Source: a virus
Lineage: Duplodnaviria; Caudoviricetes
IMG/VR virus record: IMGVR_UViG_3300032261_000044
Coordinates: 1-33,814 of that record
Length of the DNA stretch: 33,814 nucleotides
Strand: one strand, 5' to 3'
Part shown: piece after piece, positions 16,838 through 31,296 of the stretch
Layout of the letters: each line of letters begins with the position of its first letter
Position numbering within the stretch: the stretch's first letter is position 1
Made by a program: the position numbers and the translations under genes
Notes under the pieces: model-generated
What the model was told of the DNA's origin: nothing
Database searches by the model: none
What the model saw: the letters and a program-made list of their open reading frames with translations, nothing else

Positions 16838-19666
16838 ATGGCCGACGAAGCCCTGCGCGAAAAGCAAGAACAGGAAAAACTCGCCAAGGCGCGCGATCAG
16901 GCCAAGCGGGATGAGATGGCGGGCTGGATCAGGCGCACCTTCTCCGATCCGGAGTTTCGCGCGCTCGACAGCAAGGACAAGATCAGCATCATGGAGCAGG
17001 CCGATCCGGAGTTTCAGTCGATTCCCGATATGGCCGACAAGGCGCGCGTCGTTCAGTCGTACCTGTACCAGGTTCCCAAAGGGATGCCCTCCACCGGCAG
17101 CGCGTGGCGGGACTTTGCGGAGAGCTTCGTGGGGGCCGCGATGCAGCCGGTCTACTACGGCGGCGAACTTGTGCGGCGCGGCGAGCAAAAGCTCTTCGGC
17201 AAAACGGGCGAGAAGCTGGAAGAGATGGGCGTGCCCAAAGGCATGGTCGAGTTCATGGGCCTGGAGGGGCATCCGTTAGAGCGGCCCGAGACGCAGTATT
17301 TTCTCCGCCCCACGGAGAGCTTTGCGGGCAAGGCAGGCGCGATTGCGGAGCCGATCGTAGAGCTGGCGCTCGCGCCCGAGCTGAAAGCCACCAAGGTGCC
17401 CAAGCTGCTCAAGAGCGGGCAGGCGCTGATGCGCGCGGGCAAGCCCGTGCTGCGCGAGACGCTGCCCTCCTTCCTGGCGCGGTCGGCCACCGAAGGCGTC
17501 AAGCTGGGCGTTCAGGCCGGGCTGCACGGAGACAAGCCGGTTCCCGGCGCGATCCTGGGAGCCTCGATGCCCATGGCCGGCTGGATGGTGAATAAAATCG
17601 TCGCGCCGTCGCTGGCAGGCAGCGCCCGCTGGCTCTACAATCGCGCGCTCAATCCCACCACCAAAATAACCAAGGGTGAAACCGCCGAAGTTGTGCCCGA
17701 GCTGCTCGAGCGCCATTTCTGGAGGGCCACGTTCCCGCGCCTGAAGGATGCCGCCGAGGAGAACCTGGCGAATGCCGAGCAGGGCGTCGGTCAGGCCGAG
17801 GCCGCTGCTATCAGACGGTCGCAGCGGACCTACACCACGACCGGATACTACCGCGTGAGCCGCACGCCGCCGCCGCGACCGGGGCCGGCCACCATCAACG
17901 TTCCCCCGGCGGGCGGAGCAGGGGCGGCAGCGGGCGCGCCTGGAGCCGCCCCAGCGGCAGGAGGCGCGGCGGCGATCCCTGGCGGGGCGGGGCCGCTGGC
18001 GCAGGCGGGCGGGGAAGAGATGCTGGGGCCGGAAGCCGCCGCGCGGGCGCGCCGGTCACAGGCCGCCTGGGAGCGGCGGCGGCAGTTTTCCGGACGTGGT
18101 GCGCCGCCGCCACCGCGAGGCGCGCCTGGTGCGGGAGCGGGGACGGCGGGCGCGGGAGGCAGGGCGGGGTACGGCGTCTACACGGCCACGCCCGGGCTCG
18201 TGGACGTGAAGCCAGTCTTCGACAGGCTGCAGGCCGAGTTGGCGAAGACGCATGTGAGCGGAGTCTTCCCTTCGCCCCAGGCCGGGACTCTCTACAACCA
18301 GTTGCGGGATCAGCTCAACCGGCTGGCCATGGTGGCCCAAACCGGCTGGACTCCGCAGGGCCGCTACGGCTGGTACATGACCCTGCCGCAGGCCATCAAG
18401 TTCCGCCGCATCCTGGATAAACCTCTGGGGCAGGCGGGCGTGTTCTACAACGATCCCGCCTGGGCCTCGCTGTTCCATGTGCAGGAGATTGCCGCCAACT
18501 CGCTGCGCGGCGTCATCAAGGACAATTTCCCCGAGCTGGTCAAGCCCTATCAGGAGTATCACCTCTGGAAAACCGGCATCCACATCATGGAGCAGACCGA
18601 GAGGCGGAAGATCGGCCAGATCGGGTTGCTGCATGTGCTCGCCACCGCCGGCCCGCTGGTGGGGCGCGGGATCATGGGAGGTGATATCGCCTCTGAGCTG
18701 GGGGAGGTGGTGCTGGCCAACGCCGCCATGTCACTGGTGAGTTCCCCGGGAATGCAGACCATGACTGGCGTGGGGTTCCAGCGGATCGCTGACGCGCTCG
18801 AGAGCCGCAACGTGACGGCTTTCCTGCAAGCAGCGGGGACGGTGGTGAGGCCGCGCCAGGACCAGGAGGAGGACTACAACGTTCCGCCGCCCGTTCCGGG
18901 GCGCGGCGGTGAGCCCGCGCCTCGGGCGGCAGCGCCAGCAGGCGGACGCGGAATGCCAGTGGTCGAAGCGGCACGAGGACCGGTGGCTGCGGAAGCAGGC
19001 CGGGGAGCGCCCGCCGTGACGCCGAAGACGCCTGGTACGGCGGCGGCGGCTCGGCCCAAGCCGAGCCCCTTCGCCCAAAGCGCCACGCCGCCCCCGGGAA
19101 CGACCTGGGAATACTGGGGTCTGAAGCCGCCGGTGGGGAACCAGCCGCCCCAGCCCACCGGGGAGTTCCGGCGCGGCCTCCGGCTGGAGCGGCGAGCGCC
19201 CCAGGCGGCACCGCCGCGCGCCGCCCGGCCTCCTGCCGGAAGAGCAGGGGGTCGGGGACGGCCGGATTTCACCGCGCAGTACCAGCAGGTAGGGCGGGCG
19301 ACAGGCGTGCCTGCCGGTCTGTTGCATGCCATCGCGCAGTTGGAATCGAGCGGCAATCCGGACGCGGTTGGCGGCTCCGGCGAGATTGGCCTGATGCAGT
19401 TCATGCCCGCTACGGCGAAGGCGTTGAAGGTAGATCCGCGCGATCCCGAGCAGTCCATCCGGGGCGCGGCCACGCTGCTGCGGCACCTGATGCAGAAGTA
19501 CCGGGGGGATATCGCGAGCGTGCTCGCGGCCTACAACGAGGGGGAAACCGCCTTTGACCGGCGGCGGCGGCGCGGCCAGGCGCTGCCCGCCATCACCCAG
19601 CGCTACGTGCGCAATGGGCTGGCACTGCTCGGGCGGGGCGGGCAGAGTCTGGCCGGAGCGCGCTAA
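16838..19666 (+). CDS. internal virion protein with C-terminal lytic transglycosylase (SLT) domain
   Basis: AIAQLESSGNP.AVG..GEIGLMQFMPATA ... LAAYNEG SLT motifs in the last ~130 aa. Confidence 0.85.
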   Translation: MADEALREKQEQEKLAKARDQAKRDEMAGWIRRTFSDPEFRALDSKDKISIMEQADPEFQSIPDMADKARVVQSYLYQVPKGMPSTGSAWRDFAESFVGAAMQPVYYGGELVRRGEQKLFGKTGEKLEEMGVPKGMVEFMGLEGHPLERPETQYFLRPTESFAGKAGAIAEPIVELALAPELKATKVPKLLKSGQALMRAGKPVLRETLPSFLARSATEGVKLGVQAGLHGDKPVPGAILGASMPMAGWMVNKIVAPSLAGSARWLYNRALNPTTKITKGETAEVVPELLERHFWRATFPRLKDAAEENLANAEQGVGQAEAAAIRRSQRTYTTTGYYRVSRTPPPRPGPATINVPPAGGAGAAAGAPGAAPAAGGAAAIPGGAGPLAQAGGEEMLGPEAAARARRSQAAWERRRQFSGRGAPPPPRGAPGAGAGTAGAGGRAGYGVYTATPGLVDVKPVFDRLQAELAKTHVSGVFPSPQAGTLYNQLRDQLNRLAMVAQTGWTPQGRYGWYMTLPQAIKFRRILDKPLGQAGVFYNDPAWASLFHVQEIAANSLRGVIKDNFPELVKPYQEYHLWKTGIHIMEQTERRKIGQIGLLHVLATAGPLVGRGIMGGDIASELGEVVLANAAMSLVSSPGMQTMTGVGFQRIADALESRNVTAFLQAAGTVVRPRQDQEEDYNVPPPVPGRGGEPAPRAAAPAGGRGMPVVEAARGPVAAEAGRGAPAVTPKTPGTAAAARPKPSPFAQSATPPPGTTWEYWGLKPPVGNQPPQPTGEFRRGLRLERRAPQAAPPRAARPPAGRAGGRGRPDFTAQYQQVGRATGVPAGLLHAIAQLESSGNPDAVGGSGEIGLMQFMPATAKALKVDPRDPEQSIRGAATLLRHLMQKYRGDIASVLAAYNEGETAFDRRRRRGQALPAITQRYVRNGLALLGRGGQSLAGAR

Positions 19667-19808
19667 TAGCGCTTCCTCCCTTTTAGCCGTTCCCACATTC
19701 CTATGGCGCAGCCCGCCAACATTACCACGGCGAAAATGGCCCCAAAGATGTAGAGCGGCTCACGTATGCCTAGAGCGTCCAGCACCAGAAGCACCATCAC
19801 GAACACGA

Positions 19809-20732
19809 TCATTCCTCCTCCTTCCACTTGAGCCCCAGCCGGTCGTTGGGGGCGTTAGCGAGATCCTGCTCCGTGCCCAGATAACGCTCCGTCGTCTGGA
19901 TCGACTGATGGCCTAACAGCATCTGGATCTGTTCGAGTTTGCCGCCGTGGGTGCGGCAGAGTTTGGCGCAGGTGCGCCTCAGATCGTGGGCCTTGAGGGT
20001 CACGCCGATCTCGCGGCCATAGCGCGCCGCCAGCCGCAATATCCCGCTGCCCGAGATGGAGTCGCGGGTGATCTGGCCGTGGCGGTTGACGGCCCTGAGG
20101 ATGCGTCCGGTGGAGAGTTGTGCCGCCTCCTTCCAGCGGTCGATGGCGATCTTCACCCACCCGGGCAGGGGCACCGTGCGGATGCGCCCCCGCTTGCCCC
20201 GGATGTCCACCAGGCAAAAGCGCCCGTCGCGCTCCCCGACGTGTTCGAAGGTAAGTTGTGCTGCCTCGGCTCTCCGCAGGCCGCAACCCACCAGCAGGGA
20301 CAGGGCGCAGCGGTCGCGCTTGCCCTTGACGGTGTCAGGCTCCGGGGCCTGGATGAGCGCCTGGGCCTGCTGCTGGGTCAGCCAGTTGCCCGCCCGGTTG
20401 CCGCTCAGCCGGACGTTAGGCACCTCGTCGATCCCAGCGGCGGTGGCAGCGTCGAGGTAGCCGTTGTGAGCAGCCTCCCGGGCCAGCTTGCGGATGGCCG
20501 AGAGGCATATGTTGATGGTCGAAGGCGCAAGGCCGCGCTTCTCCAACTCGGCGCGCCAGGCCTGCACGCTGGCGCGGTTAAACGGAAGCGCGCAGGCGGC
20601 GCGCCAGTCGAGAAACTCGACCAGGGCGTGGCCGTAATGGCGCTTGGTCTCTTCGCTCGAGACGGTGTCAATGACCAGCGCGAGCACGCTATCGAGCGAG
20701 GCGGTTCGGGGGACGAGGGCGAGGGCGGTCAC
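19809..20732 (-). CDS. tyrosine recombinase/integrase (XerC/D-like, SAM-like N-domain)
   Basis: GLRRAE (R), GKRG (K), HDLRR, LLGH, TERY catalytic set; GTG start at 20732 after GGAAGGAGG; 307 aa. Confidence 0.92.
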   Translation of the reverse strand: MTALALVPRTASLDSVLALVIDTVSSEETKRHYGHALVEFLDWRAACALPFNRASVQAWRAELEKRGLAPSTINICLSAIRKLAREAAHNGYLDAATAAGIDEVPNVRLSGNRAGNWLTQQQAQALIQAPEPDTVKGKRDRCALSLLVGCGLRRAEAAQLTFEHVGERDGRFCLVDIRGKRGRIRTVPLPGWVKIAIDRWKEAAQLSTGRILRAVNRHGQITRDSISGSGILRLAARYGREIGVTLKAHDLRRTCAKLCRTHGGKLEQIQMLLGHQSIQTTERYLGTEQDLANAPNDRLGLKWKEEE

Positions 20733-20974
20733 TAGAGGTCCTCCTTCCGCTGGTGGCTTCTGAGCTTGGGCTCTTCGCAGTCGTGGCCGCGCCTCAGAGC
20801 GCGCTTGAGCGTCATCTGGCCGCAGGCGCAGCGCGGCTTGTCGGTCGAGCGCGGCGCGCCGGGACCGGCCCCGCAGGTGCGGCGCAGGGCCGCCAGCTCG
20901 CGCGCCCGCTCGGTGCCGATGGGTTTGCCGCGCGCTCCGGCGACGGGGTTGTTCTGGGGATTTTCCGTTCTCAT
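20732..20974 (-). CDS. small basic Cys-containing hypothetical protein
   Basis: 80 aa; TAGTG coupling to the recombinase. Confidence 0.55.
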   Translation of the reverse strand: MRTENPQNNPVAGARGKPIGTERARELAALRRTCGAGPGAPRSTDKPRCACGQMTLKRALRRGHDCEEPKLRSHQRKEDL

Positions 20975-21141
20975 GGCTGCCTCTCATCGTTGGCCAGCGC
21001 CTCCAGTAACTCGCGCGCATGGGCTATGGTATGGGCCAGTTCCTCGCGGACGAAGTGCGCCGCGTCGGAAGCTTCGCTAGGCATCATTTCGAGGCCCCCC
21101 TCCAGGGCCTCGAGATTGGTAAGCAGTGTCTTGTAGCTCAT
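20971..21141 (-). CDS. 56-aa helical hypothetical protein (not in ORF track)
   Basis: ATGA overlaps at both ends; MSYKTLLTNLEALEGG...NDERQP. Confidence 0.6.
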   Translation of the reverse strand: MSYKTLLTNLEALEGGLEMMPSEASDAAHFVREELAHTIAHARELLEALANDERQP

Positions 21142-21386
21142 CCTCTGAACCTCCGCTCCTCCAGCCGCGTGATGCGCTCGCCGTGGTCGTTGAGCTTATC
21201 GCCGAGGCGCTCGTTGAGCCGCTTCTCCAGCTCGACTAGCTCGAGCTTGATCTCGGTACGGACCAACTCGATTTCCTTGCGAATGCCGCGCGCTTCCGCG
21301 TGCATCGCCCAGATGAACGGGGCGGTCACCACAGTGATCAGCACGCCTCCGATCGAGGCCACCAGCTTCCACATATCGGGACTCAT
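21138..21386 (-). CDS. single-TM plus coiled-coil membrane protein
   Basis: GAGGAGG RBS; MSPDMWKLVASIGGVLITVVTAPFIWAM, then heptad repeats. Confidence 0.65.
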   Translation of the reverse strand: MSPDMWKLVASIGGVLITVVTAPFIWAMHAEARGIRKEIELVRTEIKLELVELEKRLNERLGDKLNDHGERITRLEERRFRG

Positions 21387-21793
21387 TCGGCCTCCTCGCG
21401 CGCCCCAAAGCCCGTGGCGCATAGGGCGCACTCGTTCACGTGATAAAAACGAGCCTCTTTCCCGGAGAGATACGAACACTTATTCCGGACCCCGTGGTAG
21501 GGAAGGCCATTCTCGGTGGCGGTGACGCGGAAGAATCCGCCGCGCGTGCGCAGCCAGCGTACGGTGACGACGATGCCGGATATCAGACGGCCCGCCGAAT
21601 CTTCCCACGACACCGCTTCGCCCGGGCTGAAATGTGCTCTCATTGCCGTTACGTCCTCCTGACACTCGATCTTCTTGCCTATGTACAGCTGCTCGTCTTT
21701 CAACTCCTGCCGCCGCAGGTGACGGCGGTGCCCGCAGGCGAGCAGCACGGTCGACCACTCGCCCCAGCCGAGGATGTGCTCGATGGTGGTCAT
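21383..21793 (-). CDS. hypothetical protein
   Basis: Likely start MTTIEH at an ATGA overlap with GGAGG upstream. Confidence 0.5.
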   Translation of the reverse strand: MTTIEHILGWGEWSTVLLACGHRRHLRRQELKDEQLYIGKKIECQEDVTAMRAHFSPGEAVSWEDSAGRLISGIVVTVRWLRTRGGFFRVTATENGLPYHGVRNKCSYLSGKEARFYHVNECALCATGFGAREEAE

Positions 21794-22308
21794 TGCCTTA
21801 GCCTCCGGCTTTTCGGGTCGCGGTACGGATAGCCGCACTCGTCACAGCGCAACTCCTGTAAACGCCAGCCCTTCCTGATATGCTCCGCAGCGCATTGGTC
21901 GCGCATCAGATCCACCTCCAGGTGATCAATCTGGTGCATCAGTTCCTCGAAGGTCTCAGTTTCAATCACTGCCTCGACACTGAATATGCGCCCGCTATCC
22001 CACTCGGCCCAGAAATGCACTTGCGCCTGTCCAGGCGAGATCTCGACGTCTCCGAACCGGATCTCCTTGCGCGGCGCGGTCGAAACCTTGCGCGGCAAAC
22101 CGCTCAAACCGGCGGATTCGGGATTGCCGTCATCGGTCGAAGCCTCGAACCACTCGCGCATCCATTCCCAAACACCGGGCGCGCGTTCATCCCATACCGT
22201 TTTGTCGCGCGACCACACGGACCATTTGAGGTCTACCGTGCGCTCGTATTTTTCATTGAAATGCTCTGATTCTGGCGGATCTGCAGAATGCATCGGATTT
22301 TGTAACAT
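21790..22308 (-). CDS. hypothetical protein
   Basis: 172 aa; preceded by the shared leader AAAAGGACATAGAC. Confidence 0.6.
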   Translation of the reverse strand: MLQNPMHSADPPESEHFNEKYERTVDLKWSVWSRDKTVWDERAPGVWEWMREWFEASTDDGNPESAGLSGLPRKVSTAPRKEIRFGDVEISPGQAQVHFWAEWDSGRIFSVEAVIETETFEELMHQIDHLEVDLMRDQCAAEHIRKGWRLQELRCDECGYPYRDPKSRRLRQ

Positions 22309-22358
22309 GTCTATGTCCTTTTCTGCGGCTGTGCCGCATCTGCGATACGTTGCAATTT

Positions 22359-22381
22359 CACGGTACCACGGTGGTACCGTG
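22359..22381. promoter_or_regulatory. 23-bp palindrome, operator-like
   Basis: CACGGTACCAC-G-GTGGTACCGTG; the core CACGGYGGTACCG recurs at 27798-27810 and 28094-28106. Confidence 0.5.
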
Positions 22382-22448
22382 CTCGATTCCGTTGTGCTAC
22401 ACTGAGGGCGTCTATTGTCCTTTCACTCGGGTGTGCCACACTCGGGCG

Positions 22449-22481
22449 AAAAACGGCGGGAACGCAGGTTCCCGCCGTTTT
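22449..22481 (-). terminator. intrinsic terminator (possibly bidirectional) closing the small-gene operon
   Basis: AAAACGGCGGGAAC-GCAG-GTTCCCGCCGTTTT perfect hairpin with a T run on either strand, just after the stop at 22490. Confidence 0.75.
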
Positions 22482-22489
22482 ATTTAGCG

Positions 22490-22801
22490 TCATGGCCGTG
22501 CCTCCCGGTAGCGCGGCACGAAGCAGTGTTCCAGCTGGCCGGTTTCGCGGTTCAGACACCGCCGGATACCGGCGATATCGTGAGTGAAGTCGTCCTTCAG
22601 ATACTGCTCCGCCCGGTCGAAGTCTTGGTGACTGCCCGCCATGATGCGGGCAGTGCCGGCAGCGTCGTCCAGGTGCTGGCAGTAATACTCCGCGCCCTGG
22701 AGGGTCACGCGGTAGTCGCCGTATTCGTCGCGCCGAAACTTCCCGCCCAGGCGTCTGATGTACTCGCGCGCGATGGCCTGGGTCAGGCGAGGGCCCCTCA
22801 T
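22490..22801 (-). CDS. hypothetical protein
   Basis: 103 aa, ATGA-coupled to the upstream gene. Confidence 0.6.
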   Translation of the reverse strand: MRGPRLTQAIAREYIRRLGGKFRRDEYGDYRVTLQGAEYYCQHLDDAAGTARIMAGSHQDFDRAEQYLKDDFTHDIAGIRRCLNRETGQLEHCFVPRYREARP

Positions 22802-23499
22802 GCCACCCTCCCGATCTGCACAAACGCGCCGCTCTCAAGTGTGCGGATCTTCCGGCCTTTCTCCCGCAGGCCCACGATTACGCCTTTCGGGTCGAGGAAT
22901 CTCAGGTCATGCTTGTCCCCGTCGATTACCTCCACCCCGTGCCAGGTGGCGGGCTTTCGGCCACGGAACACCACCGCTACGTTGATGCCATGCTCCAGGG
23001 CCTTCATGGAATGCTTGAGGTTTTCGCCGCTATAGCTATAGGTCAGATGATAGTTCTCCATAGTCCTCTCCCATGGCCTGTCGAGCTTGGTGTAGTCGTA
23101 GAACGGCACCCTCGGGAAGCGCCGCGCCATGGTGCGCGCGAGCTTGGGCTGATCTGACGTTCCGTTCAGCCGCTCGGCGGGTTTGAGTCCCCGGTTTTCG
23201 GCTTCCAGAATCAGCTTCTCCGTGTCCCGCTCCAGCCGGTCGCAGAAGCCGTTGAAGTCCGCGATGTAGTCGAGCGTCTTGGCGACGCGGGCTTCGAGGA
23301 TCGAGGGGTAAACCTCGCTCATGCCCGATTGGTTCAGGCAGGCTAACGTGCATTCTTCACTTCTGCCTGCACACATCTCATGCACGCCGTCGGCGGATTT
23401 AGCGGGCGCGAGGTAGAGAATGGCCGTGAGCCATCCCCAGGCCTTGCCCTTTTTGGTCTTAGCGTCCCGGTCGACACTAAGCAAGTCGTATTTTGCCAT
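22798..23499 (-). CDS. GP88-family protein (Cys-triad, radical-SAM-like)
   Basis: LYLAPA..C......C...CL..SG, RLNGTSD, FYDYTK, YHLTYS, NVAVVF, DGD.HDLRFLD motifs recalled for this phage family. Confidence 0.75.
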   Translation of the reverse strand: MAKYDLLSVDRDAKTKKGKAWGWLTAILYLAPAKSADGVHEMCAGRSEECTLACLNQSGMSEVYPSILEARVAKTLDYIADFNGFCDRLERDTEKLILEAENRGLKPAERLNGTSDQPKLARTMARRFPRVPFYDYTKLDRPWERTMENYHLTYSYSGENLKHSMKALEHGINVAVVFRGRKPATWHGVEVIDGDKHDLRFLDPKGVIVGLREKGRKIRTLESGAFVQIGRVA

Positions 23500-23800
23500 T
23501 GTCTATGTCCTCCTCTTCGTCGTCGCCGGTCCCGGCGCGGGTAGCGATGAGGACATCGCCCGCGATGCCGTCGTGCCACGCTATGCCGGTCTCGCGGTGG
23601 GCGATGCGATCAGCTTCGACGTTGCAGGGCAGGTCGTTGAGCTTGCCCTCTTCGTTGAGATACATGACCGTGCCGCCGTTCAGCTCCAGAGCTTCGATCA
23701 AGCCCCCGGCGTAGCGCTGTAGCTCATCGAGGGTGAAGGTTTTGCCATTGGCGGGCATGACGGATTCGCCTGCCGCGCCTGCTTTAATCCAGAGTGCCAT
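23477..23800 (-). CDS. DUF3846-like protein
   Basis: P.NG..FTLDELQ..GGLIE....MYLNEEGKL..LP.N..A....I.GDVLI pattern. Confidence 0.7.
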   Translation of the reverse strand: MALWIKAGAAGESVMPANGKTFTLDELQRYAGGLIEALELNGGTVMYLNEEGKLNDLPCNVEADRIAHRETGIAWHDGIAGDVLIATRAGTGDDEEEDIDNGKIRLA

Positions 23801-23828
23801 GTCTTTTTGTCCTTTCGTTGTCTTGTGC

Positions 23829-24134
23829 TTATTCGTCGTTGTCGTCCAGGCTTTGCTCCAGCCCGTTGGCGGTCCGGTCGATATCCTCCACGATCCAGTT
23901 CAGCGCGTCGCGGAATTGCTCCACCGCTTCGCGGCTGGTCATGCACTTCGCCGCGATATTGAGCGGGGCCAAGAAGCGCTGGACCGCCCGCAGTGCCGCT
24001 AGTTCGAGGCGTTCGTCGGCGGTTTCCCAGATGCAGTCGAACAGGTCCTTGGCCTGTGCCTGAGTCTGCGCCTGCAGGAGCATGGTCTTGAACATGTGCT
24101 CATAGTCGGGAGTGAGCACGATCTCGTTTGGCAT
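23829..24134 (-). CDS. helical hypothetical protein
   Basis: Start MPNEIVLTP after the shared leader. Confidence 0.65.
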   Translation of the reverse strand: MPNEIVLTPDYEHMFKTMLLQAQTQAQAKDLFDCIWETADERLELAALRAVQRFLAPLNIAAKCMTSREAVEQFRDALNWIVEDIDRTANGLEQSLDDNDE

Positions 24135-24160
24135 CGTCTTGTCCTTTCGTTGTCTTGTGC

Positions 24161-24370
24161 CTACTGGTTGCCGTCCTGCCCCTCGGGCGGAGTGAACTCC
24201 ATCCTCCAGCACGTGCTGCATATGCCGCTGAGGAGCATCTCTCTTTCCTCCCTGGGGACATGCGGCATGGCCTTCTGGATAAGTGCGCCTCCGGCCCAGG
24301 CGCGCCACTGGTCCTCGGTGCAGTGAATGATTTGGGGCGTGCCGCAGCTTACGCAGCAACGGACAATCAT
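24161..24370 (-). CDS. small zinc-binding hypothetical protein
   Basis: MIVRCCVSCG...LIQ.AMP....ERE.LLSGICSTCW; GGAGGAG RBS. Confidence 0.65.
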   Translation of the reverse strand: MIVRCCVSCGTPQIIHCTEDQWRAWAGGALIQKAMPHVPREEREMLLSGICSTCWRMEFTPPEGQDGNQ

Positions 24371-24690
24371 GGCCGCTCCTCCCCTGCGGGTGCGAAGTCG
24401 AAGGCCAGTTGTGCGGCTTCGAAGCTCCGGCCGCAGTCGTAGCATTCCCAGGTAGCGCCTTCGAGCGGCTCGGTGTAGCGCCCGCCGCAGTGCGGGCATG
24501 GCAGGCCTTCGACTTCTTGGTTGCGCTGGTCCTCGTCTTCGTCCAAGCGGCGAGGGTCCTGGTCCTCGGGCATGGTGCAGTCGGGGCACAGGCTCAGCCG
24601 CACTCCGTGGCGGAGTACGGAGTACGACGCGGGCACGCGGCAGCGGCCGGCGACGTGGTTGATGGCATCGAGATCACATTGGCATTTCAT
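24367..24690 (-). CDS. zinc-ribbon hypothetical protein
   Basis: CPDC, CPHCGG and CYDCG motifs; shared leader. Confidence 0.6.
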   Translation of the reverse strand: MKCQCDLDAINHVAGRCRVPASYSVLRHGVRLSLCPDCTMPEDQDPRRLDEDEDQRNQEVEGLPCPHCGGRYTEPLEGATWECYDCGRSFEAAQLAFDFAPAGEERP

Positions 24691-24715
24691 ACGTCTATGT
24701 TCCTTTCCTTGTGCT

Positions 24716-24883
24716 TCAAGCGTTGACGTTCAGGTCCTGCGCCAGCGACTGCGCAGCCTTGTCGGCGGCATTGATCGCGGTCTGTTTGGCCTCGTCTGGC
24801 GGGAGTTGGCATACGGTAACAAGGTAGTTGTAGACCCAGTTGCCGATCTGGTTTGCGATGTGCTTCAGCCGTTTGTCGTTCAT
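24716..24883 (-). CDS. 55-aa hypothetical protein
   Basis: MNDKRLKHIANQ... after GAAAGGAC. Confidence 0.6.
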   Translation of the reverse strand: MNDKRLKHIANQIGNWVYNYLVTVCQLPPDEAKQTAINAADKAAQSLAQDLNVNA

Positions 24884-24957
24884 GTAAGTCCGGTCCTTTC
24901 GTTGTGCGCGTTCGATTATTCGCCCGCGCAGGCGGAAACCCGCGCGGGCTTTCTGGT

Positions 24958-25263
24958 TTAGGTGTGGATGTAACCGTCGTACTCCACCCCCACATACATG
25001 CCCCACCGCTGGAAATACCAGTGGTCCCGGTTGTGCCTAAGCTCGGCGAGTATCTCCACAGCTTGGTCCGGCCATGCCCGCGCGATAGCTTCGAGGACTG
25101 CCTGCGGGATTTCGTCCCCGTCCAGAGGCTCGTAGGTATTGCCCACAGGCAAGCCCGTCTCCCTGTCGGCGTGGGCGTCAAAGTCGCCGTTCGTCCATAC
25201 GCGGCGGGATTCGTCCCAATCGAGGGTGTAACCATCGGTTGTGCGGAACTTTCGTTGTGCCAT
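24958..25263 (-). CDS. hypothetical protein
   Basis: 101 aa, shared leader. Confidence 0.65.
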   Translation of the reverse strand: MAQRKFRTTDGYTLDWDESRRVWTNGDFDAHADRETGLPVGNTYEPLDGDEIPQAVLEAIARAWPDQAVEILAELRHNRDHWYFQRWGMYVGVEYDGYIHT

Positions 25264-25266
25264 AGT

Positions 25267-25509
25267 CTAGTGTCCTTTCGTTGTGCGCGTTCGTTTATTC
25301 GCCCGCGCGGGCAGGCTGATGTCCCTGCCTTGCTCGATAGCCGTCGCACAGCTATTGCAGTAGGCGTACTCCGGGCGGATGTGGACCAAGCGTCCGCAAC
25401 CCTGGCAGCGCTTCTCCACCGATTCACGCTGTGTGCGATGGTAGAAGGCTATGTCCTCGGCATCTTCGATGTCGTAGAAGCCGTAGTTATCGTCGTAGTA
25501 ACTTGCCAT
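25267..25509 (-). CDS. small zinc-finger hypothetical protein
   Basis: CQGC..CNSC; shared leader. Confidence 0.65.
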   Translation of the reverse strand: MASYYDDNYGFYDIEDAEDIAFYHRTQRESVEKRCQGCGRLVHIRPEYAYCNSCATAIEQGRDISLPARANKRTRTTKGH

Positions 25510-25571
25510 TGTCTTTGTCCTTTCGTCCTAGAACGGGGGGAGAGACTAAGCTCTCCCCCCGGTCCTGTAGT

Positions 25572-25751
25572 TCACACCATAAGCAGGAGTTGCTCTGCCC
25601 CGTACACGCGTGCCATGCCGCATGCCTCGCAGACATACCGCTCGGCGTCAGGTTCCACTCCGTAGGCTTCCGCTCCACACGCGAGACAGAAGCCTCGGCT
25701 ATCGTCTTCGTCGATAGCTTCGATGATTTGTTCTAAGCTAATCTTTGCCAT
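25572..25751 (-). CDS. 59-aa zinc-ribbon protein (not in ORF track)
   Basis: MAKISLEQIIEAIDEDDSRGFCLACGAEAYGVEPDAERYVCEACGMARVYGAEQLLLMV after the shared leader. Confidence 0.75.
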   Translation of the reverse strand: MAKISLEQIIEAIDEDDSRGFCLACGAEAYGVEPDAERYVCEACGMARVYGAEQLLLMV

Positions 25752-25769
25752 TGTCTTTGTCCTTTCGTC

Positions 25770-26021
25770 CTAGACTTCCTTCCACGTCCAATCCCAATAG
25801 GCGCCGGTCCCGTAGTCGCCCGCGTGCGAGCCTAACTCGTACAGCGTCACGCCCTGTAGCCAGTACAGGCAGTAGTCTGTGTGGAAGGTATCCCTGCCGT
25901 CCATGTACTCTACGCCCTGCCATCGCTCGCGGACGTAAGCCTGCACGCCCTTCAGCGTGGGAAAGGAGCGGACTGTTACCGGTCCACGGCCTTCTTCCTG
26001 GAATCTCACGGTGTATGCCAT
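25770..26021 (-). CDS. hypothetical protein
   Basis: 83 aa, directly downstream of hammerhead HH-c; shared leader. Confidence 0.65.
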   Translation of the reverse strand: MAYTVRFQEEGRGPVTVRSFPTLKGVQAYVRERWQGVEYMDGRDTFHTDYCLYWLQGVTLYELGSHAGDYGTGAYWDWTWKEV

Positions 26022-26034
26022 TGTCTATGTCCTT

Positions 26035-26100
26035 TCGACCTGTCTCTTCAGCACGGGTAGGTCAACTCCCATGGACCACGGGTTACCCCGTGGTTTCGAC
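26035..26100 (-). ncRNA. type II hammerhead ribozyme HH-c
   Basis: GUC GAAA CCACGGG-GUAA-CCCGUGG UC^ CAUGGG-AGUUGACCUA-CCCGUG CUGAAGA GAC AGGUCGA: full core, three stems, pseudoknot UUGACCU/AGGUCGA; predicted cut 26074/26073. Confidence 0.93.
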
Positions 26101-26328
26101 TCAGTTCACTTTGGCTGGATCTTTCCAGACAGAGCGCCCGTCAGAAAGGGGAATGTGATCAGCGGGGATGTCCGTGAAGTACTCTTGAGAGACTTCCTGT
26201 CTCAAGCTTGCGAGTATGTCCGTAGCATCCACGTCGGCGGGTTCCATCTCTTCCTCCGACAGCCATAGCAGATACCGTATGGCACTGGTTAGCTTGCCTA
26301 ACGCCGTAGTCTTCTCAATCCTAGTCAT
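26101..26328 (-). CDS. hypothetical protein
   Basis: 75 aa; its stop abuts HH-c. Confidence 0.65.
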   Translation of the reverse strand: MTRIEKTTALGKLTSAIRYLLWLSEEEMEPADVDATDILASLRQEVSQEYFTDIPADHIPLSDGRSVWKDPAKVN

Positions 26329-26331
26329 GGT

Positions 26332-26595
26332 CTATGTCCTTTCGTTGTGCTTCAAGCGTTGACGTTCAGGTCCCCCGGTGCAGGGATAGTCCCGCAAGGC
26401 TTGGTTCCAGATCAGGCGAACGTCTTCGCCCACGCTGTAGCCGTGCTCCCCGCGAATCCTCCGGACATCGGCGTCGGCCAGGGCTTTCCAGATCAGGGTA
26501 CGGCAGGCTAGCACCTGTCGGCAGTTAAGGCATTTTCCGCAGCGTTTGTGCATGTCTAGTTTGTCCTTTCGTCGGGGTTCAGTGAGGTTAAGCAT
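26332..26595 (-). CDS. small Cys-rich hypothetical protein (alternative start 26553)
   Basis: CGKCLNC motif; two in-frame ATGs, each preceded by the shared leader. Confidence 0.6.
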   Translation of the reverse strand: MLNLTEPRRKDKLDMHKRCGKCLNCRQVLACRTLIWKALADADVRRIRGEHGYSVGEDVRLIWNQALRDYPCTGGPERQRLKHNERT

Positions 26596-26613
26596 CGTCT
26601 ATGTCCTCTCCGT

Positions 26614-26679
26614 CAGCCTGTCTCTTCAGCATGGGGGAGGCTATCTCCCATGGACCACGGGTTACCCCGTGGTTTCGAC
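26614..26679 (-). ncRNA. type II hammerhead ribozyme HH-b
   Basis: GUC GAAA CCACGGG-GUAA-CCCGUGG UC^ CAUGGG-AGAUAGCCUCC-CCCAUG CUGAAGA GAC AGGCUG; pseudoknot UAGCCU/AGGCUG; predicted cut 26653/26652. Confidence 0.93.
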
Positions 26680-26933
26680 TACCACGTGGACAAGTCCCCC
26701 CGTATCGCGCGTGCTGCGGAGTAGGAGTCCCAAGCTTCGTTCCGCTTTTCGTCCTGCGGGGACTGCCACCCCTTACCCTCACAGCGAAAGCAGATACCGC
26801 CCGGTCCCGTGGGCTTGCCGTTGACCACAGCGGTGATGAACTGTCCCGTCCCCCCGCACCGCTCACAGCGGTGGCCTAGGACCGTCTTCCCGTCGTGGAC
26901 TTCCCCCGTGCTTTTCCGTAGGTAAAGTTTCAT
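26679..26933 (-). CDS. small DnaJ-type zinc-finger (CxxCxGxG) protein
   Basis: CERCGGTG and CFRCEGKG; start 26933 after GAGGACATGGAC; flanked by hammerheads on both sides. Confidence 0.7.
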   Translation of the reverse strand: MKLYLRKSTGEVHDGKTVLGHRCERCGGTGQFITAVVNGKPTGPGGICFRCEGKGWQSPQDEKRNEAWDSYSAARAIRGDLSTW

Positions 26934-26946
26934 GTCCATGTCCTCT

Positions 26947-27016
26947 AGCCTGTCTCTTCAGCATGGGGAGGCTGTCTCCCATGGACGGCAACATCTCACG
27001 ACGTCGCCGTTTCGAC
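26947..27016 (-). ncRNA. type II hammerhead ribozyme HH-a
   Basis: GUC GAAA CGGCGACGUC-GUGA-GAUGUUGCCG UC^ CAUGGG-AGACAGCCUC-CCCAUG CUGAAGA GAC AGGCU; different stem III still 10 bp with a GNRA loop; predicted cut 26984/26983. Confidence 0.93.
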
Positions 27017-27021
27017 TACGA

Positions 27022-27345
27022 CTACGCCTTACGGCTAAGCTTCGAACCGTTGGCCTTGATGAACCCCTTAATCTCGCCGGCCATGCCCAAGAGCCTCTCC
27101 CATTGCTCCACGTACAGGGTGAAGGGGAACCGTCCCATACCGTAGACCGAGAGAGCGCCCTTCTCCGATACCCGGAGGGTTAACCCGTTAGCGGGCTTCG
27201 CTCTGAGCGCTTCGTTCTCCCGCTGCAGGCGCTCGAGTTCCACTTCAAGCAATAGCTGTTGCTCGGTCTTCACCGGGATGATGGGGGTTGCTGTTGGCGT
27301 GGTGTCTACCCCGCCGTTAATCGATGGACGAATCGTCTTTGCCAT
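27022..27345 (-). CDS. conserved hypothetical protein, first gene of the operon
   Basis: Coiled coil followed by RVSEKGALSVYGMGRFPFTLYVEQWERLL. Confidence 0.7.
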   Translation of the reverse strand: MAKTIRPSINGGVDTTPTATPIIPVKTEQQLLLEVELERLQRENEALRAKPANGLTLRVSEKGALSVYGMGRFPFTLYVEQWERLLGMAGEIKGFIKANGSKLSRKA

Positions 27346-27384
27346 TGTCTATGTCCTTGTCTGCCGAGCCTTCCGGCAATTTCG

Positions 27385-27413
27385 ATCGTGACCGAAACAA
27401 CGCGGCAAGTCAA
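27385..27413 (-). promoter_or_regulatory. sigma70-type promoter for the small-gene operon
   Basis: TTGACT-17 nt-CACGAT, about 40 nt upstream of ATG 27345. Confidence 0.55.
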
Positions 27414-27480
27414 GCGGTTTCTGCGGGCAACTGTGAGCGGCCGCACAAACTGCCGGGCGGCCGCTCGGACGGCCGGACGG

Positions 27481-27509
27481 CTGCAAACGGCGCTCAGCGC
27501 CGTTTGCAG
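27481..27509. repeat. perfect 14-bp inverted repeat
   Basis: CTGCAAACGGCGCT-C-AGCGCCGTTTGCAG. Confidence 0.8.
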
Positions 27510-28761
27510 AATGCCGATTGCTGAGGCGGAAACAGCCCGCCCTGCAATCGGCGGACACCTACCCAACCCGTTACACCCCCCCCTCGCAAATTTAGCGCTA
27601 AAGTGACTAGGACTAAGGGCATTGTCGTAGACTGATAGCGGGAGAGGGGAAAGTCTGTCTGCGTGATAGGACTGCGAGGGTAAGTGTCTAGCCTTCAACA
27701 GGATAGCAGCGAAGACAAGGCTCGCGCAAGGGGGTAGGGCGCGTTAAGCGTACCGTTACGCTCGTTGTACCGATAGCGCGGTAATGCCGTGCTGCGGCAC
27801 GGCGGTACCGGAGACCGCGTCACTCGCGGCAATTCCGATTACCACGCGTTACACGCCCCCTGCTATCACCGTAGGCCTACGGCATAGACCAAGGCTAAGT
27901 CCACAGCAAAGTCGTAGACTCGCGTGCGCGTAGCGCGTAGCGCGTAGCGCGGGACGTTGTCCGGGGGCCTGGCTGGGCCTAGGCCCTATTGACCTCATCC
28001 CCGGATAGAATTTTCCGGCAGAATTTTCCGCCGGAATTTTTCGCGCATTTCTCAACGGATTCTCAACCAAAAATCAACACAAGCCATTGGTGTCACGGTG
28101 GTACCGGAGTGGGTATAAAATAGGATGAGCCACTCCGCAGGAGAGCACCGAGGGGTATGAGCGAGCCAGATGTGTTGAGAGCACCTAGCCGAGCGAGCGA
28201 ACGAGCCGCATAGCGGGGAAATTTACCGCTATGCGGTAAAATTGCAGCCAAGCACTCCCTCCCCCTCCAACCTCCCCCTCCCTCTGGGGGAAAGTTCCAT
28301 GGAATTTCCGTGGAGTTTCGGGCGGCTCAATCTTCCGCATATTTTCCGCATAGCTTCCGCTTACGCGGCATGACGTTTGTCTCGCTGTTTCCGCCGGCAA
28401 GCGTCACGGCAAGGTGTAGCGATTCCGCCACATGGTCCTGTACCCATAGCTGAAGAGGGCGGCGGAATCAGTACCTGGGATTTCGCCTGGAGTGTTTCAC
28501 GTGAAGGGGCTGGCCGGGTCTAGCGGGTCCTGGGCGGTTCTTAGAAAATCTGGGGGAGCAGGTTCCCGGGCCTGCGCCCCCGGGAGGAGATCGCTTTTAA
28601 CTGCCCAAATCCGGCGGACAGCCCGCTATTCCGGCAACCGTTGATGCTGGGAGATTGCAAGATCCACAACAACCCGTTGCCGCAAGACGCCCGGAGGATG
28701 CCGGGGCGTTTTCGGGTGAATTTTCGAGCTGTCCGTCAATTCCCGAGTATAATCCTAGCCA

Positions 28762-28995
28762 ATGGCGCGCATGGTGAATCGATTGATCGAACCCCAGACG
28801 CGCCGCCGCCGGGTACCGCGCGAGGTCTTCGGGTACCCGGGGACGGAGAATTATCTGGAGGGGGAGCCGCGTCCTCCGGAGCGGGTGCCGGGCGATCCGG
28901 CGGCGCTCGAGCGGCTGCGCACTTCCAAGGCTCGGGCGGAGCGGCTGCGGGCCGCGCCGCGCTCGCTCGGTCGGAGGAAGAAGCGTTATGGCTAG
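28762..28995 (+). CDS. Arg-rich hypothetical protein
   Basis: 77 aa; TATAAT shortly upstream; overlaps the next start. Confidence 0.45.
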   Translation: MARMVNRLIEPQTRRRRVPREVFGYPGTENYLEGEPRPPERVPGDPAALERLRTSKARAERLRAAPRSLGRRKKRYG

Positions 28996-29218
28996 GAAGT
29001 CGCCCAAGCTGACTGCTGCCAAGCGCCGTTCGCTTCCCAAGAGCCAGTTTGCGCTGCCGGGGCGGGACGGCTACCCGGTGGACACGCCTGGTCGGGCGCG
29101 GGCCGCCAAGGGAAGGGCCACGCAGGCGGTGAAAGCGGGGCGGATGAGCGAAGCCACGGCGGCCAAGATCCGCGCCAAGGCGGATCGCAAGCTGGGGCGC
29201 GGGGCGAAGAAGCGGTGA
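28988..29218 (+). CDS. small basic protein (DUF6582-like)
   Basis: GGAGGA RBS; R.SLPKSQFALP....YP.D...RAR.A pattern. Confidence 0.6.
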   Translation: MARKSPKLTAAKRRSLPKSQFALPGRDGYPVDTPGRARAAKGRATQAVKAGRMSEATAAKIRAKADRKLGRGAKKR

Positions 29219-29493
29219 GGGACTACTCACGCATCCCCGCGACCACGCTCGAGACGCTGAAGGCCTGGATCGAGCACGGGCGTCCCATGGGCTCGTTCTG
29301 CACAGCCATCGTCAGCAATGATCTCCGCGAGGCCTGCATCCGCGCCGACGAGCGCAACCGCGCCGCCCTGTTTGAGATCGTCGCCTGGCTGCATAACTAC
29401 GCGCCCATCGGATCGTGGGGATCGCCCCAGGCACTCAAGAGCTGGCCGCGCATGTTGTCGGCCAAGGCCAGCTCGGCCAGCAGGGCGGTGTAG
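29215..29493 (+). CDS. conserved phage hypothetical protein
   Basis: GTGA coupling; G.F..A...NDL.EA..RAD..N...L..IV.WL...AP..SWGS. Confidence 0.65.
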   Translation: MRDYSRIPATTLETLKAWIEHGRPMGSFCTAIVSNDLREACIRADERNRAALFEIVAWLHNYAPIGSWGSPQALKSWPRMLSAKASSASRAV

Positions 29494-29588
29494 GGACTTG
29501 GGGGGACTCGAAGTAGTGTAAGATGAGGAATCGAAATACCTGCCCGGGGGTCTGATTCCCGGGACACCCCTATCACCTGAAGCGCACC

Positions 29589-30893: not shown

Positions 30894-31066
30894 TTGCGGG
30901 CTGCTTTCTCCGGGTTGAGCTTGGCAGCCAGCTCGGCCTCCAGCCGGGAAAGGCGGGCGATGTTCCGGCGCTCCAGCGCTTCTCTCAATTCATGCTGCTG
31001 GCGGGCGGTCATCTGGTGCCACCTGCCGGCCCAGTGGCCCGCCCTCAAAAGATCGGTGTTTTCCAT
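30890..31066 (-). CDS. 58-aa hypothetical protein
   Basis: AAGGAG RBS before MENTDLL. Confidence 0.6.
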   Translation of the reverse strand: MENTDLLRAGHWAGRWHQMTARQQHELREALERRNIARLSRLEAELAAKLNPEKAARK

Positions 31067-31098: not shown

Positions 31099-31296
31099 GT
31101 GAGACTGTGAGACCGGTAGAGGGGTGAGACTGGTGGGACTCTATCCCCCTATATAATTTTTCTAATGATGTTAAGTTATAGATAAATAAGGACTTGTTGA
31201 GTCTCACCAGTCTCACCCCCCATAGCCTGTCTCACGTCTCTCCAGTCTCAGCAGTCTCACCTGTCTCGACGGTATCGCCCGTCTCACCAGTCTCAT
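31099..31296. other. putative replication origin (inverted iterons around an AT-rich core)
   Basis: GTGAGAC x3 plus one variant on the left, GTCTCAC x5 plus four variants on the right, AT-rich 31142-31198; directly after the primase/helicase stop. Confidence 0.8.

Follow-up and report, generated by a model that had tools for sequence, protein, structure and literature searches.

The small-gene operon of a new uncultivated phage carries self-cleaving RNA motifs between its first genes, which raises the question of what a phage would gain from cutting its own transcript at these junctions. The locus is part of a 58%-complete virus contig of 33.8 kb (IMGVR_UViG_3300032261_000044); by the window we denote this whole stretch of 33,814 nucleotides. 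Profile searches of the window recovered phage genes for capsid, scaffold, lytic transglycosylase, primase-polymerase and integrase, and all 24 sequencing runs that contain the stretch are soil DNA. Among the capsid relatives in genome bins, three of four are labelled Terriglobales or Sulfotelmatobacter and one Rugosimonospora. This points weakly to Acidobacteriota as the candidate host, weakly because the binned contigs of these relatives are short or stand-alone.

A descriptor for the three hammerhead permutations, applied to both strands of the whole window, detected exactly three hammerheads, here called HH-a, HH-b and HH-c. All are of type II and all lie on the minus strand. An earlier note on this DNA, made from the letters, had claimed type II hammerheads at three of the first four gene junctions, and the descriptor agrees with it down to the cuts: the C17 positions place the predicted cleavage after C26984, C26653 and C26074, where the note had expected it (26984/26983, 26653/26652 and 26074/26073). 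In 200 dinucleotide-preserving shuffles of the window we obtained 7 loose matches in total and 0 strict ones, a strict match having stems as long as those of HH-a, HH-b and HH-c; the three motifs occur far above chance expectation. A pattern search of the source record gave 3 reverse-strand matches, the control pattern 1, and neither of two descriptors found a further hammerhead or variant core elsewhere in the window. The motifs sit on the coding strand in the intergenic gaps of junctions 1, 2 and 4, within 1 kb, and flank gene 2 and genes 3-4; the descriptor search found no hammerhead at junction 3. Other ribozyme classes were not found at the remaining junctions with Rfam and folding, which showed plain hairpins or little structure instead. 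Coordinates are collected in Table 1.

Table 1. Features of the small-gene operon and its surroundings, in window positions.
Feature	Position	Strand	Remarks
Candidate promoter	27385..27413	-	TTGACT, 17 nt, CACGAT; from a two-sequence alignment with G005
Gene 1	27022..27345	-	107 aa; no Pfam or PHROG family
HH-a	26947..27016	-	type II; descriptor, folding, alignment
HH-a stem II, 5' strand	27016-27014	-	
HH-a GAAA	27013-27010	-	
HH-a stem III	27009-26986	-	
HH-a cut	after C26984	-	predicted
HH-a stem I	26983-26962	-	
HH-a CUGAAGA	26961-26955	-	
HH-a stem II, 3' strand	26954-26952	-	
HH-a pseudoknot tail	26951-26947	-	
Gene 2	26679..26933	-	84 aa; CxxCxGxG zinc-finger-like
HH-b	26614..26679	-	type II; shares its first G with the UAG of gene 2; pseudoknot tail 26619-26614
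Gene 3	26332..26595	-	87 aa; no family; no match in G005
Gene 4	26101..26328	-	75 aa; no family; no match in G005
HH-c	26035..26100	-	type II; directly 3' of the gene 4 UGA; pseudoknot tail 26041-26035
Gene 5	25770..26021	-	83 aa; first gene past HH-c; no match in G005
Plain GC-rich hairpins	~25530-25560, ~24922-24950	-	two junctions without ribozyme
Junction-repeat pair	24701-24737/26337-26373		
Junction-repeat pair	24893-24933/25272-25312		
Junction-repeat pair	23802-23843/24134-24175		
Repeated ribosome-binding motif	22308..27361	-	CGAAAGGACATAGAC-like, then a start codon; 9 places in the span
Terminator-like hairpin	22450..22481	-	14 bp and a U run, after gene 15
Tyrosine integrase	19809..21020	-	same strand as the ribozymes, ~5 kb downstream

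All three copies share the core elements CUGAAGA, GAAA and GUC, in agreement with the type II pattern CUGANGA/GAAA/UH. Stem II has 3 bp and is open at its ends, while stem I (6 bp) and stem III (10, 7 and 7 bp plus an A-U pair in HH-a, HH-b and HH-c) are closed by loops. The stem III loops read GUGA, GUAA and GUAA and are all GNRA tetraloops, as the earlier note had seen. Behind stem II follows a 3' tail of 5-7 nt which pairs with loop I and thus forms a pseudoknot in each copy: AGCCU/AGGCU (5 bp) in HH-a, UAGCCU/AGGCUG (6 bp) in HH-b and UUGACCU/AGGUCGA (7 bp) in HH-c, where the class asks for at least 4 bp. It is this tail, and not GAC, that adjoins or overlaps the Shine-Dalgarno region, and in HH-c it extends into the ribosome-binding motif; the suggestion that the ribozyme ends at the Shine-Dalgarno sequence thus applies to the tail but not to GAC as the end. 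Read from these features, HH-a, HH-b and HH-c belong to the type II hammerhead structural class.

The pairing is supported by sequence changes. We aligned the three copies with the orthologue of HH-b in the closest complete relative of the phage (G005), which carries a CUGAUGA core and two compensatory pairs in stem III. Pairing is kept in 98.9% of the 88 cells, and 6 of the 22 pairs change on both sides, four of them in stem III and two in the 7-bp pseudoknot of HH-c. Only 1 of 500 shuffles equals the observed pairing and compensatory changes, a result which is supportive only, as the four rows are related and the structure was read from the same rows. Folding with a model that leaves pseudoknots out gives stem III a pairing probability of 0.96-1.00 in all copies; stem I is firm only in HH-c and the G005 orthologue in this model, and for HH-b it drops from 0.75 with 15 nt of upstream sequence to 0.02 with 40 nt. 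The fold that competes with stem I in HH-b is absent from the prediction for its G005 orthologue.

The earlier note had proposed an Infernal cmsearch with the Rfam model as a check, and this search matches none of the three. Rfam 15 gave no hammerhead match in the whole window (E <= 1) or in 26000-27060 (1061 nt, E <= 10), and none at gathering score in seven loci of relatives, four of which carry hammerheads according to the descriptor. The motif itself being present, the failure is one of model sensitivity, and the assignment is made to a structural class rather than to an Rfam family, since the Rfam 15 models stay below the gathering threshold. A common phage hammerhead subtype thus escapes Rfam 15. 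Matches to MIR533, snoRNA and Sphinx families scored far below gathering and were rejected.

The five small ORFs on the minus strand of 26000-27400 each have a Shine-Dalgarno motif, and the ribozymes stand at the head of a 15-gene cluster on this strand, ~5 kb upstream of the integrase gene. Pfam and PHROG profile searches, which covered the cluster genes except a 55-aa ORF at 24716-24883, returned no informative family for genes 1-5. The look-alike clusters of gene 1 are hypothetical proteins, some of them commonest in Acidobacteriota, and gene 2 has weak matches only (DnaJ_CXXCXGXG, E 0.009; phrog_127, E 2e-4). A homologue of gene 5 in another relative (G009, 52%) has no ribozyme in front. 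Both boxes of the candidate promoter fall on the blocks that are conserved ahead of gene 1 in G005; a promoter consensus scan reported 0 sites in 19500-29500, the candidate being below its threshold. We found no terminator-like site at the three ribozyme junctions, and the hairpin behind gene 15 likely ends the operon. The ribosome-binding motif repeat, with 10 matches in the window, precedes genes with and without a ribozyme.

Several further observations concern the operon and its neighbourhood. Gene 3 has two in-frame ribosome-binding motifs, each with an ATG, 42 nt apart (26553-26611); the ATG at 26553 would yield 73 aa, and the double start is perhaps a relic of junction duplication. Three near-identical pairs of junction repeats (37-42 nt, 81-97%) carry no ribozyme, and in genes 3 and 7 the junction repeat is translated through as a protein tail. 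Upstream of the operon, about 1.2 kb (27400-28600) hold no convincing genes and show several inverted repeats and short tandem words; G005 and another relative, G007, have a comparable gene-poor stretch ahead of their small-gene clusters. An 18-nt near-palindrome, a possible operator candidate, flanks the cluster on both sides (22361-22378 and 28089-28106). Directly downstream of the primase-polymerase gene, the stretch 31107-31235 forms a long, imperfect hairpin, AT-rich at its centre and with recurring GAGAC/GTCTC words, which looks like a replication origin; a weak chance match to MIR533 falls on it.

What would the three motifs do in such an operon? Hammerhead cleavage after GUC leaves a 2',3'-cyclic phosphate and a 5'-OH end. 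The canonical core, the pseudoknot and the phage examples tested elsewhere make it very probable that these RNAs cut themselves soon after transcription. A transcript from ~27378 to ~22445 would then be divided at the three junctions into pieces of ~395 nt (gene 1), 331 nt (gene 2), 579 nt (genes 3-4) and ~3.6 kb (genes 5-15). Each upstream piece would end in the stem III hairpin with its cyclic phosphate, each downstream piece would begin with a 5'-OH at the first base of stem I, and as only the 3 bp of stem II hold them together, the products should separate fast and the cut should be effectively one-way. We consider the processing of the operon transcript into separately stabilised pieces the best explanation of the locus, with a probability of roughly 0.6. 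Its purpose would be to uncouple lifetime and translation of each small gene from its neighbours. The '1-2-gene mRNAs' of the earlier note fit the first three pieces, but the piece past HH-c keeps about 11 genes.

The same cuts may have the opposite effect. All three candidate host genomes encode RNase E/G and also RNase J, the latter above cut-off, so that cutting could destabilise the pieces instead: each cut would expose a 5'-OH to host RNase J and thereby shorten or grade the expression of the first early genes. RNase J requires an unpaired 5' end, which argues against such timed decay, as does the position of the cut at the first base of stem I, where no unpaired leader is left if stem I forms. 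Whether it does differs between the products in pseudoknot-free folding: the HH-c product retains the 5' stem I hairpin, while for HH-a and HH-b the model predicts that other folds compete at the 5' end of the product, in favour of decay. The 'standardised, hairpin-capped ends' postulated previously are thus uncertain. According to one study, 5'-OH ribozyme ends are stable in E. coli, and in Gram-positive bacteria RNase J1 degrades them, among them glmS and hammerhead products (PMC7967978). With a candidate host that is assigned from binned contigs only, we regard timed decay as possible, if unlikely.

Circular mRNAs might also arise from the pieces between ribozymes if their ends were ligated, either in a reversal of the cleavage reaction or through RtcB of the host. 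The ends of the pieces are those that RtcB accepts by established chemistry, RtcB was found in 2 of the 3 candidate host genomes, and the identical GUC/GAC strands would let both ends of one piece rebuild a hammerhead. Such ends would be held together by merely 3 bp, RtcB is absent from the window and from G005, both of which were searched, and Perreault et al. sought spliced or circular products of phage hammerheads and, according to the main text, found none (PMC3088659). This makes circularisation highly improbable.

The position of the ribozymes with respect to the preceding stop codon is tightly kept across phages. Relative to the upstream stop, HH-a starts at +5, HH-b at -1 and HH-c at 0, in accordance with the earlier note, which had placed the starts 0-5 nt past the stop with HH-b sharing the G of UAG. 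Gene 1 ends in TAG TCG TAG (27016-27027, minus strand), and HH-a, which overlaps the second, in-frame TAG, is thereby also in the -1 register. At the 5' edge of HH-a it is a 6-nt duplication that places this second stop at -1, as if the ribozyme cassette had arrived carrying its own stop codon.

We surveyed this register with an exact pattern built on HH-a, HH-b and HH-c, which matched 71 stretches of a viral collection. A full hammerhead is present in 67 of them, more than one in 30 and eight in 6 (counted as loci, some overlapping), with up to 8 hammerheads per 8-kb stretch in other phages. The CUGAAGA core with a 3-bp GUC/GAC stem II is a common phage subtype. We compared 112 distinct type II copies by their distance from the upstream stop: 50 show -1, in every case with UAG, 19 show 0 and 17 have a distance of 1-5. 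The -1/0 register is thus found in 69 of 112 copies versus 6 of 350 non-ribozyme GTCGAA sites, control sites that lie mostly inside genes. UAG precedes 63 of the 111 ribozymes with an upstream ORF call and 65 of 344 other junctions, and a start codon with Shine-Dalgarno sequence follows 15-32 nt further on in 93 of the 112 copies. Pseudoknots of at least 5 bp occur in 84 of 112, whereas 1000 partner swaps gave 31 on average and never more than 43. In 56 of 73 ribozyme junctions, stem III begins 6-7 nt past the stop; the plain hairpins that the same loci have at their other junctions begin anywhere from 3 to 74 nt past it, with a median of 11 nt (n=32). All these counts overstate the number of independent events, because GTC was prescribed by the seed for 62 of the 112 copies, gene calls were crude and many copies are kin. 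Six loci (L006, L010, L014, L059, L061 and L066) show arrays of 7-8 type II hammerheads, one at each junction, and CUGAAGA, CUGAUGA and CUGACGA cores are mixed within single arrays.

Such a register invites an explanation by translation. A ribosome at the upstream stop would cover stem II and GAAA, so that the ribozyme could cut only in the absence of translation of the upstream gene; in a second form, translation would release HH-b from its competing fold. The -1/0 register, the excess of UAG and the tighter placement compared with plain hairpins are all as expected from gating, and so are the type I copies in relatives of the phage, 4 of 5 of which start at 0 from the stop. The same pattern would arise from genome compaction or from the copying of one stop-carrying cassette, the figures are subject to the fixed GTC, the kinship of copies and the mostly intragenic control named above, and the second form is weakened by the G005 orthologue, for which the competing fold is not predicted. 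We hold translation gating, in both forms taken jointly, to be quite improbable.

The relatives show how dispensable the ribozymes are. A capsid search led to 28 loci, from which 16 records were examined whole, 13 of them at least 90% complete; the three-type descriptor covered 16 of the 21 relative records, the other 5 being fragments below 20 kb. Hammerheads occur in 4 of the 13 near-complete relatives: a single type II copy in G005, and type I copies in G018 (one), G020 (one) and G008 (three). Shuffled sequence, 450 kb in total, yielded 0 matches. Every one of the six copies falls in the small-gene cluster, five of them with a start at -1 or 0 relative to a stop. The earlier note had suggested a survey of related phages for the junction placement; it recurs in these few relatives. 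As the equivalent gene cluster of relatives uses a different permutation, what recurs is cutting at junctions and not one particular sequence. The genes that follow the ribozymes differ among G005, G008, G018 and G020. The descriptor found no hammerhead in 9 of the 13, including G007, whose capsid is 95% identical and whose small-gene junctions carry plain hairpins; and among the loci with a gene 1 homologue, only 3 of 33 have a hammerhead within 7 kb. The ribozymes are optional in this phage group, and given these numbers their benefit is not essential. A loose pattern search of four bacterial genomes gave background only. In G018, the type I copy at C1 ~30910-30970 (minus strand) has CUGAGGA as its core and an additional base ahead of stem II, and the tip of its stem III is similar to that of HH-a. 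The capsid gene match of G018 is split after residue 20-24, and in L116 and L136 it spans ~220 nt more than in other relatives; an intron or insertion is possible in these cases.

G005 shares its gene order with the window. Gene 1 is followed there by a hairpin, gene 2 (located in contig L160 by tblastn) and the HH-b orthologue, and the homologue of gene 6 comes next; missing between otherwise collinear genes are genes 3-5 together with HH-c. At junction 1, a plain 8-bp hairpin takes the place of HH-a, followed by the same ribosome-binding sequence. It begins 10 nt past the stop, compared to 6-7 nt for stem III in most ribozyme junctions; such spacing would be expected of two structures that both act as a 3' barrier. 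In this view, the ribozyme is one optional filling of a junction cassette that consists of stop, structure and ribosome-binding motif; among relatives, the place of the structure is empty or taken by a plain hairpin or a type I hammerhead. A junction hairpin at L160:4070-4110 of G005 has flanks like pieces of the stem III and stem I of HH-b and, to judge from the sequence, may be a worn-down ribozyme or chance.

Cassettes of this kind could also act at the level of DNA, where near-identical junctions would allow small genes to be gained, lost and swapped by recombination, with the ribozymes copied along. HH-b and HH-c have 36 identical nt in common and HH-a and HH-b 22, and the gap in G005 and the duplication at the HH-a edge fit this explanation as well. 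So does an unrelated phage family with eight-ribozyme arrays, in which one gene is missing together with its ribozyme from one of four arrays and the slot after gene B is filled by different genes; in the same family, some genes were added without a ribozyme (M before L). Gene shuffling needs no ribozyme, since junctions that lack one also have the repeated ribosome-binding motif, and the compensatory changes and invariant core show selection on the RNA fold. Recombination would hence account for the spread of the copies and not for the retention of their core. We found 0 deletion or circle joints, and no mini-circle, in the contigs of 4 of the 24 runs, contigs in which rare variants are dropped; the window and G005 are too diverged to place indel breakpoints against the cassettes. 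A precedent exists in the PeSL cassettes of T4-type phages (PMC2839356). As the reason for the ribozymes' presence, recombination is unlikely in our view.

Taken together, processing of the transcript ranks ahead of timed decay, recombination cassettes, translation gating and circularisation; processing, timed decay and recombination cassettes do not exclude one another. Counting against processing are the Rfam models that do not score HH-a, HH-b and HH-c, the stem I probability of 0.02 for HH-b with 40 nt upstream, a covariation signal drawn from four related copies and the 9 of 13 relatives without a hammerhead. The protein-free cutting of a polycistronic transcript which the earlier note had proposed is the best reading of the sequence; most relatives do without ribozymes. 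A wider idea is that phage junction hammerheads in general are translation-gated cutters locked to the stop and interchangeable with type I, type II or plain hairpin fillings; the ribozyme usually shares the last G of the stop, and a terminating ribosome would switch the core off. We judge this idea improbable. If gating and cassette both applied, window and G005 would represent a natural swap experiment on the purpose of bacterial self-cleaving ribozymes. In any case, the same junction with a ribozyme here and a hairpin in G005 allows a direct swap test of cutting versus hairpin.

The serial layout has been known since 2011. The main text of Perreault et al. (PMC3088659) describes clustered hammerheads that flank single genes or short gene blocks in prophages, proposes the processing into operon- or single-gene mRNAs, reports that three tandem phage arrangements were cut to the expected sizes in vitro, one of them also in vivo, and finds the pseudoknot between loop I and 3' tail to be required for fast cleavage. 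The novelty implied in the earlier note is thereby not supported: layout, cleavage in vitro and hypothesis were all published. A 2019 review calls the role of self-cleaving ribozymes of bacteria and phages undefined, with the processing of polycistronic RNA as a suggestion, and locates them near each other and near phage genes, as here (PMC6765202). Like the clusters of Perreault et al., our locus has several close hammerheads in series between small genes, in a phage context near an integrase, and the identities of the flanked genes vary. Their type II, by the Fig. 2 legend (PMC3088659), is that found here, with stems I and III closed, stem II open, a canonical core and a pseudoknot of at least 4 bp. 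The present locus is smaller than many arrays and differs in its phage and in the candidate host, Acidobacteriota; a triple arrangement, as in our locus, was described and tested there. HH-a, HH-b and HH-c further stand apart by their CUGAAGA core with a 3-bp GUC/GAC stem II and by not being scored by Rfam 15.

PeSL cassettes are likewise small repeated cassettes in a variable small-gene region with gene gain and loss nearby, but consist of a promoter and a terminator hairpin instead of a ribozyme or hairpin and a ribosome-binding motif (PMC2839356); at the three junctions here, our scans found neither the strong sigma-70 promoter nor the terminator hairpin of a PeSL cassette. The analogy to ribozyme insulators drawn in the earlier note remains a resemblance, with nothing showing that natural copies buffer the upstream context. 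RiboJ-type synthetic insulators place a self-cleaving RNA directly upstream of the ribosome-binding site and so define the 5' end; they are engineered, and the natural copies may be likened to them as a works-like comparison only.

Altogether, the locus is an ordinary further example and not a new kind of system. The main text of PMC3088659 contains no occurrence of 'stop codon', 'Shine' or 'ribosome' and thus no discussion of the fixed stop register and the plain-hairpin swap, and a literature search of partial coverage found neither their register to the stop codon nor their exchange for hairpins treated in a paper on phage hammerheads. What is worth keeping is the natural swap of ribozyme and hairpin at one junction, the fact that one phage group uses both type I and type II, and how tightly the ribozymes keep to the stop codon.
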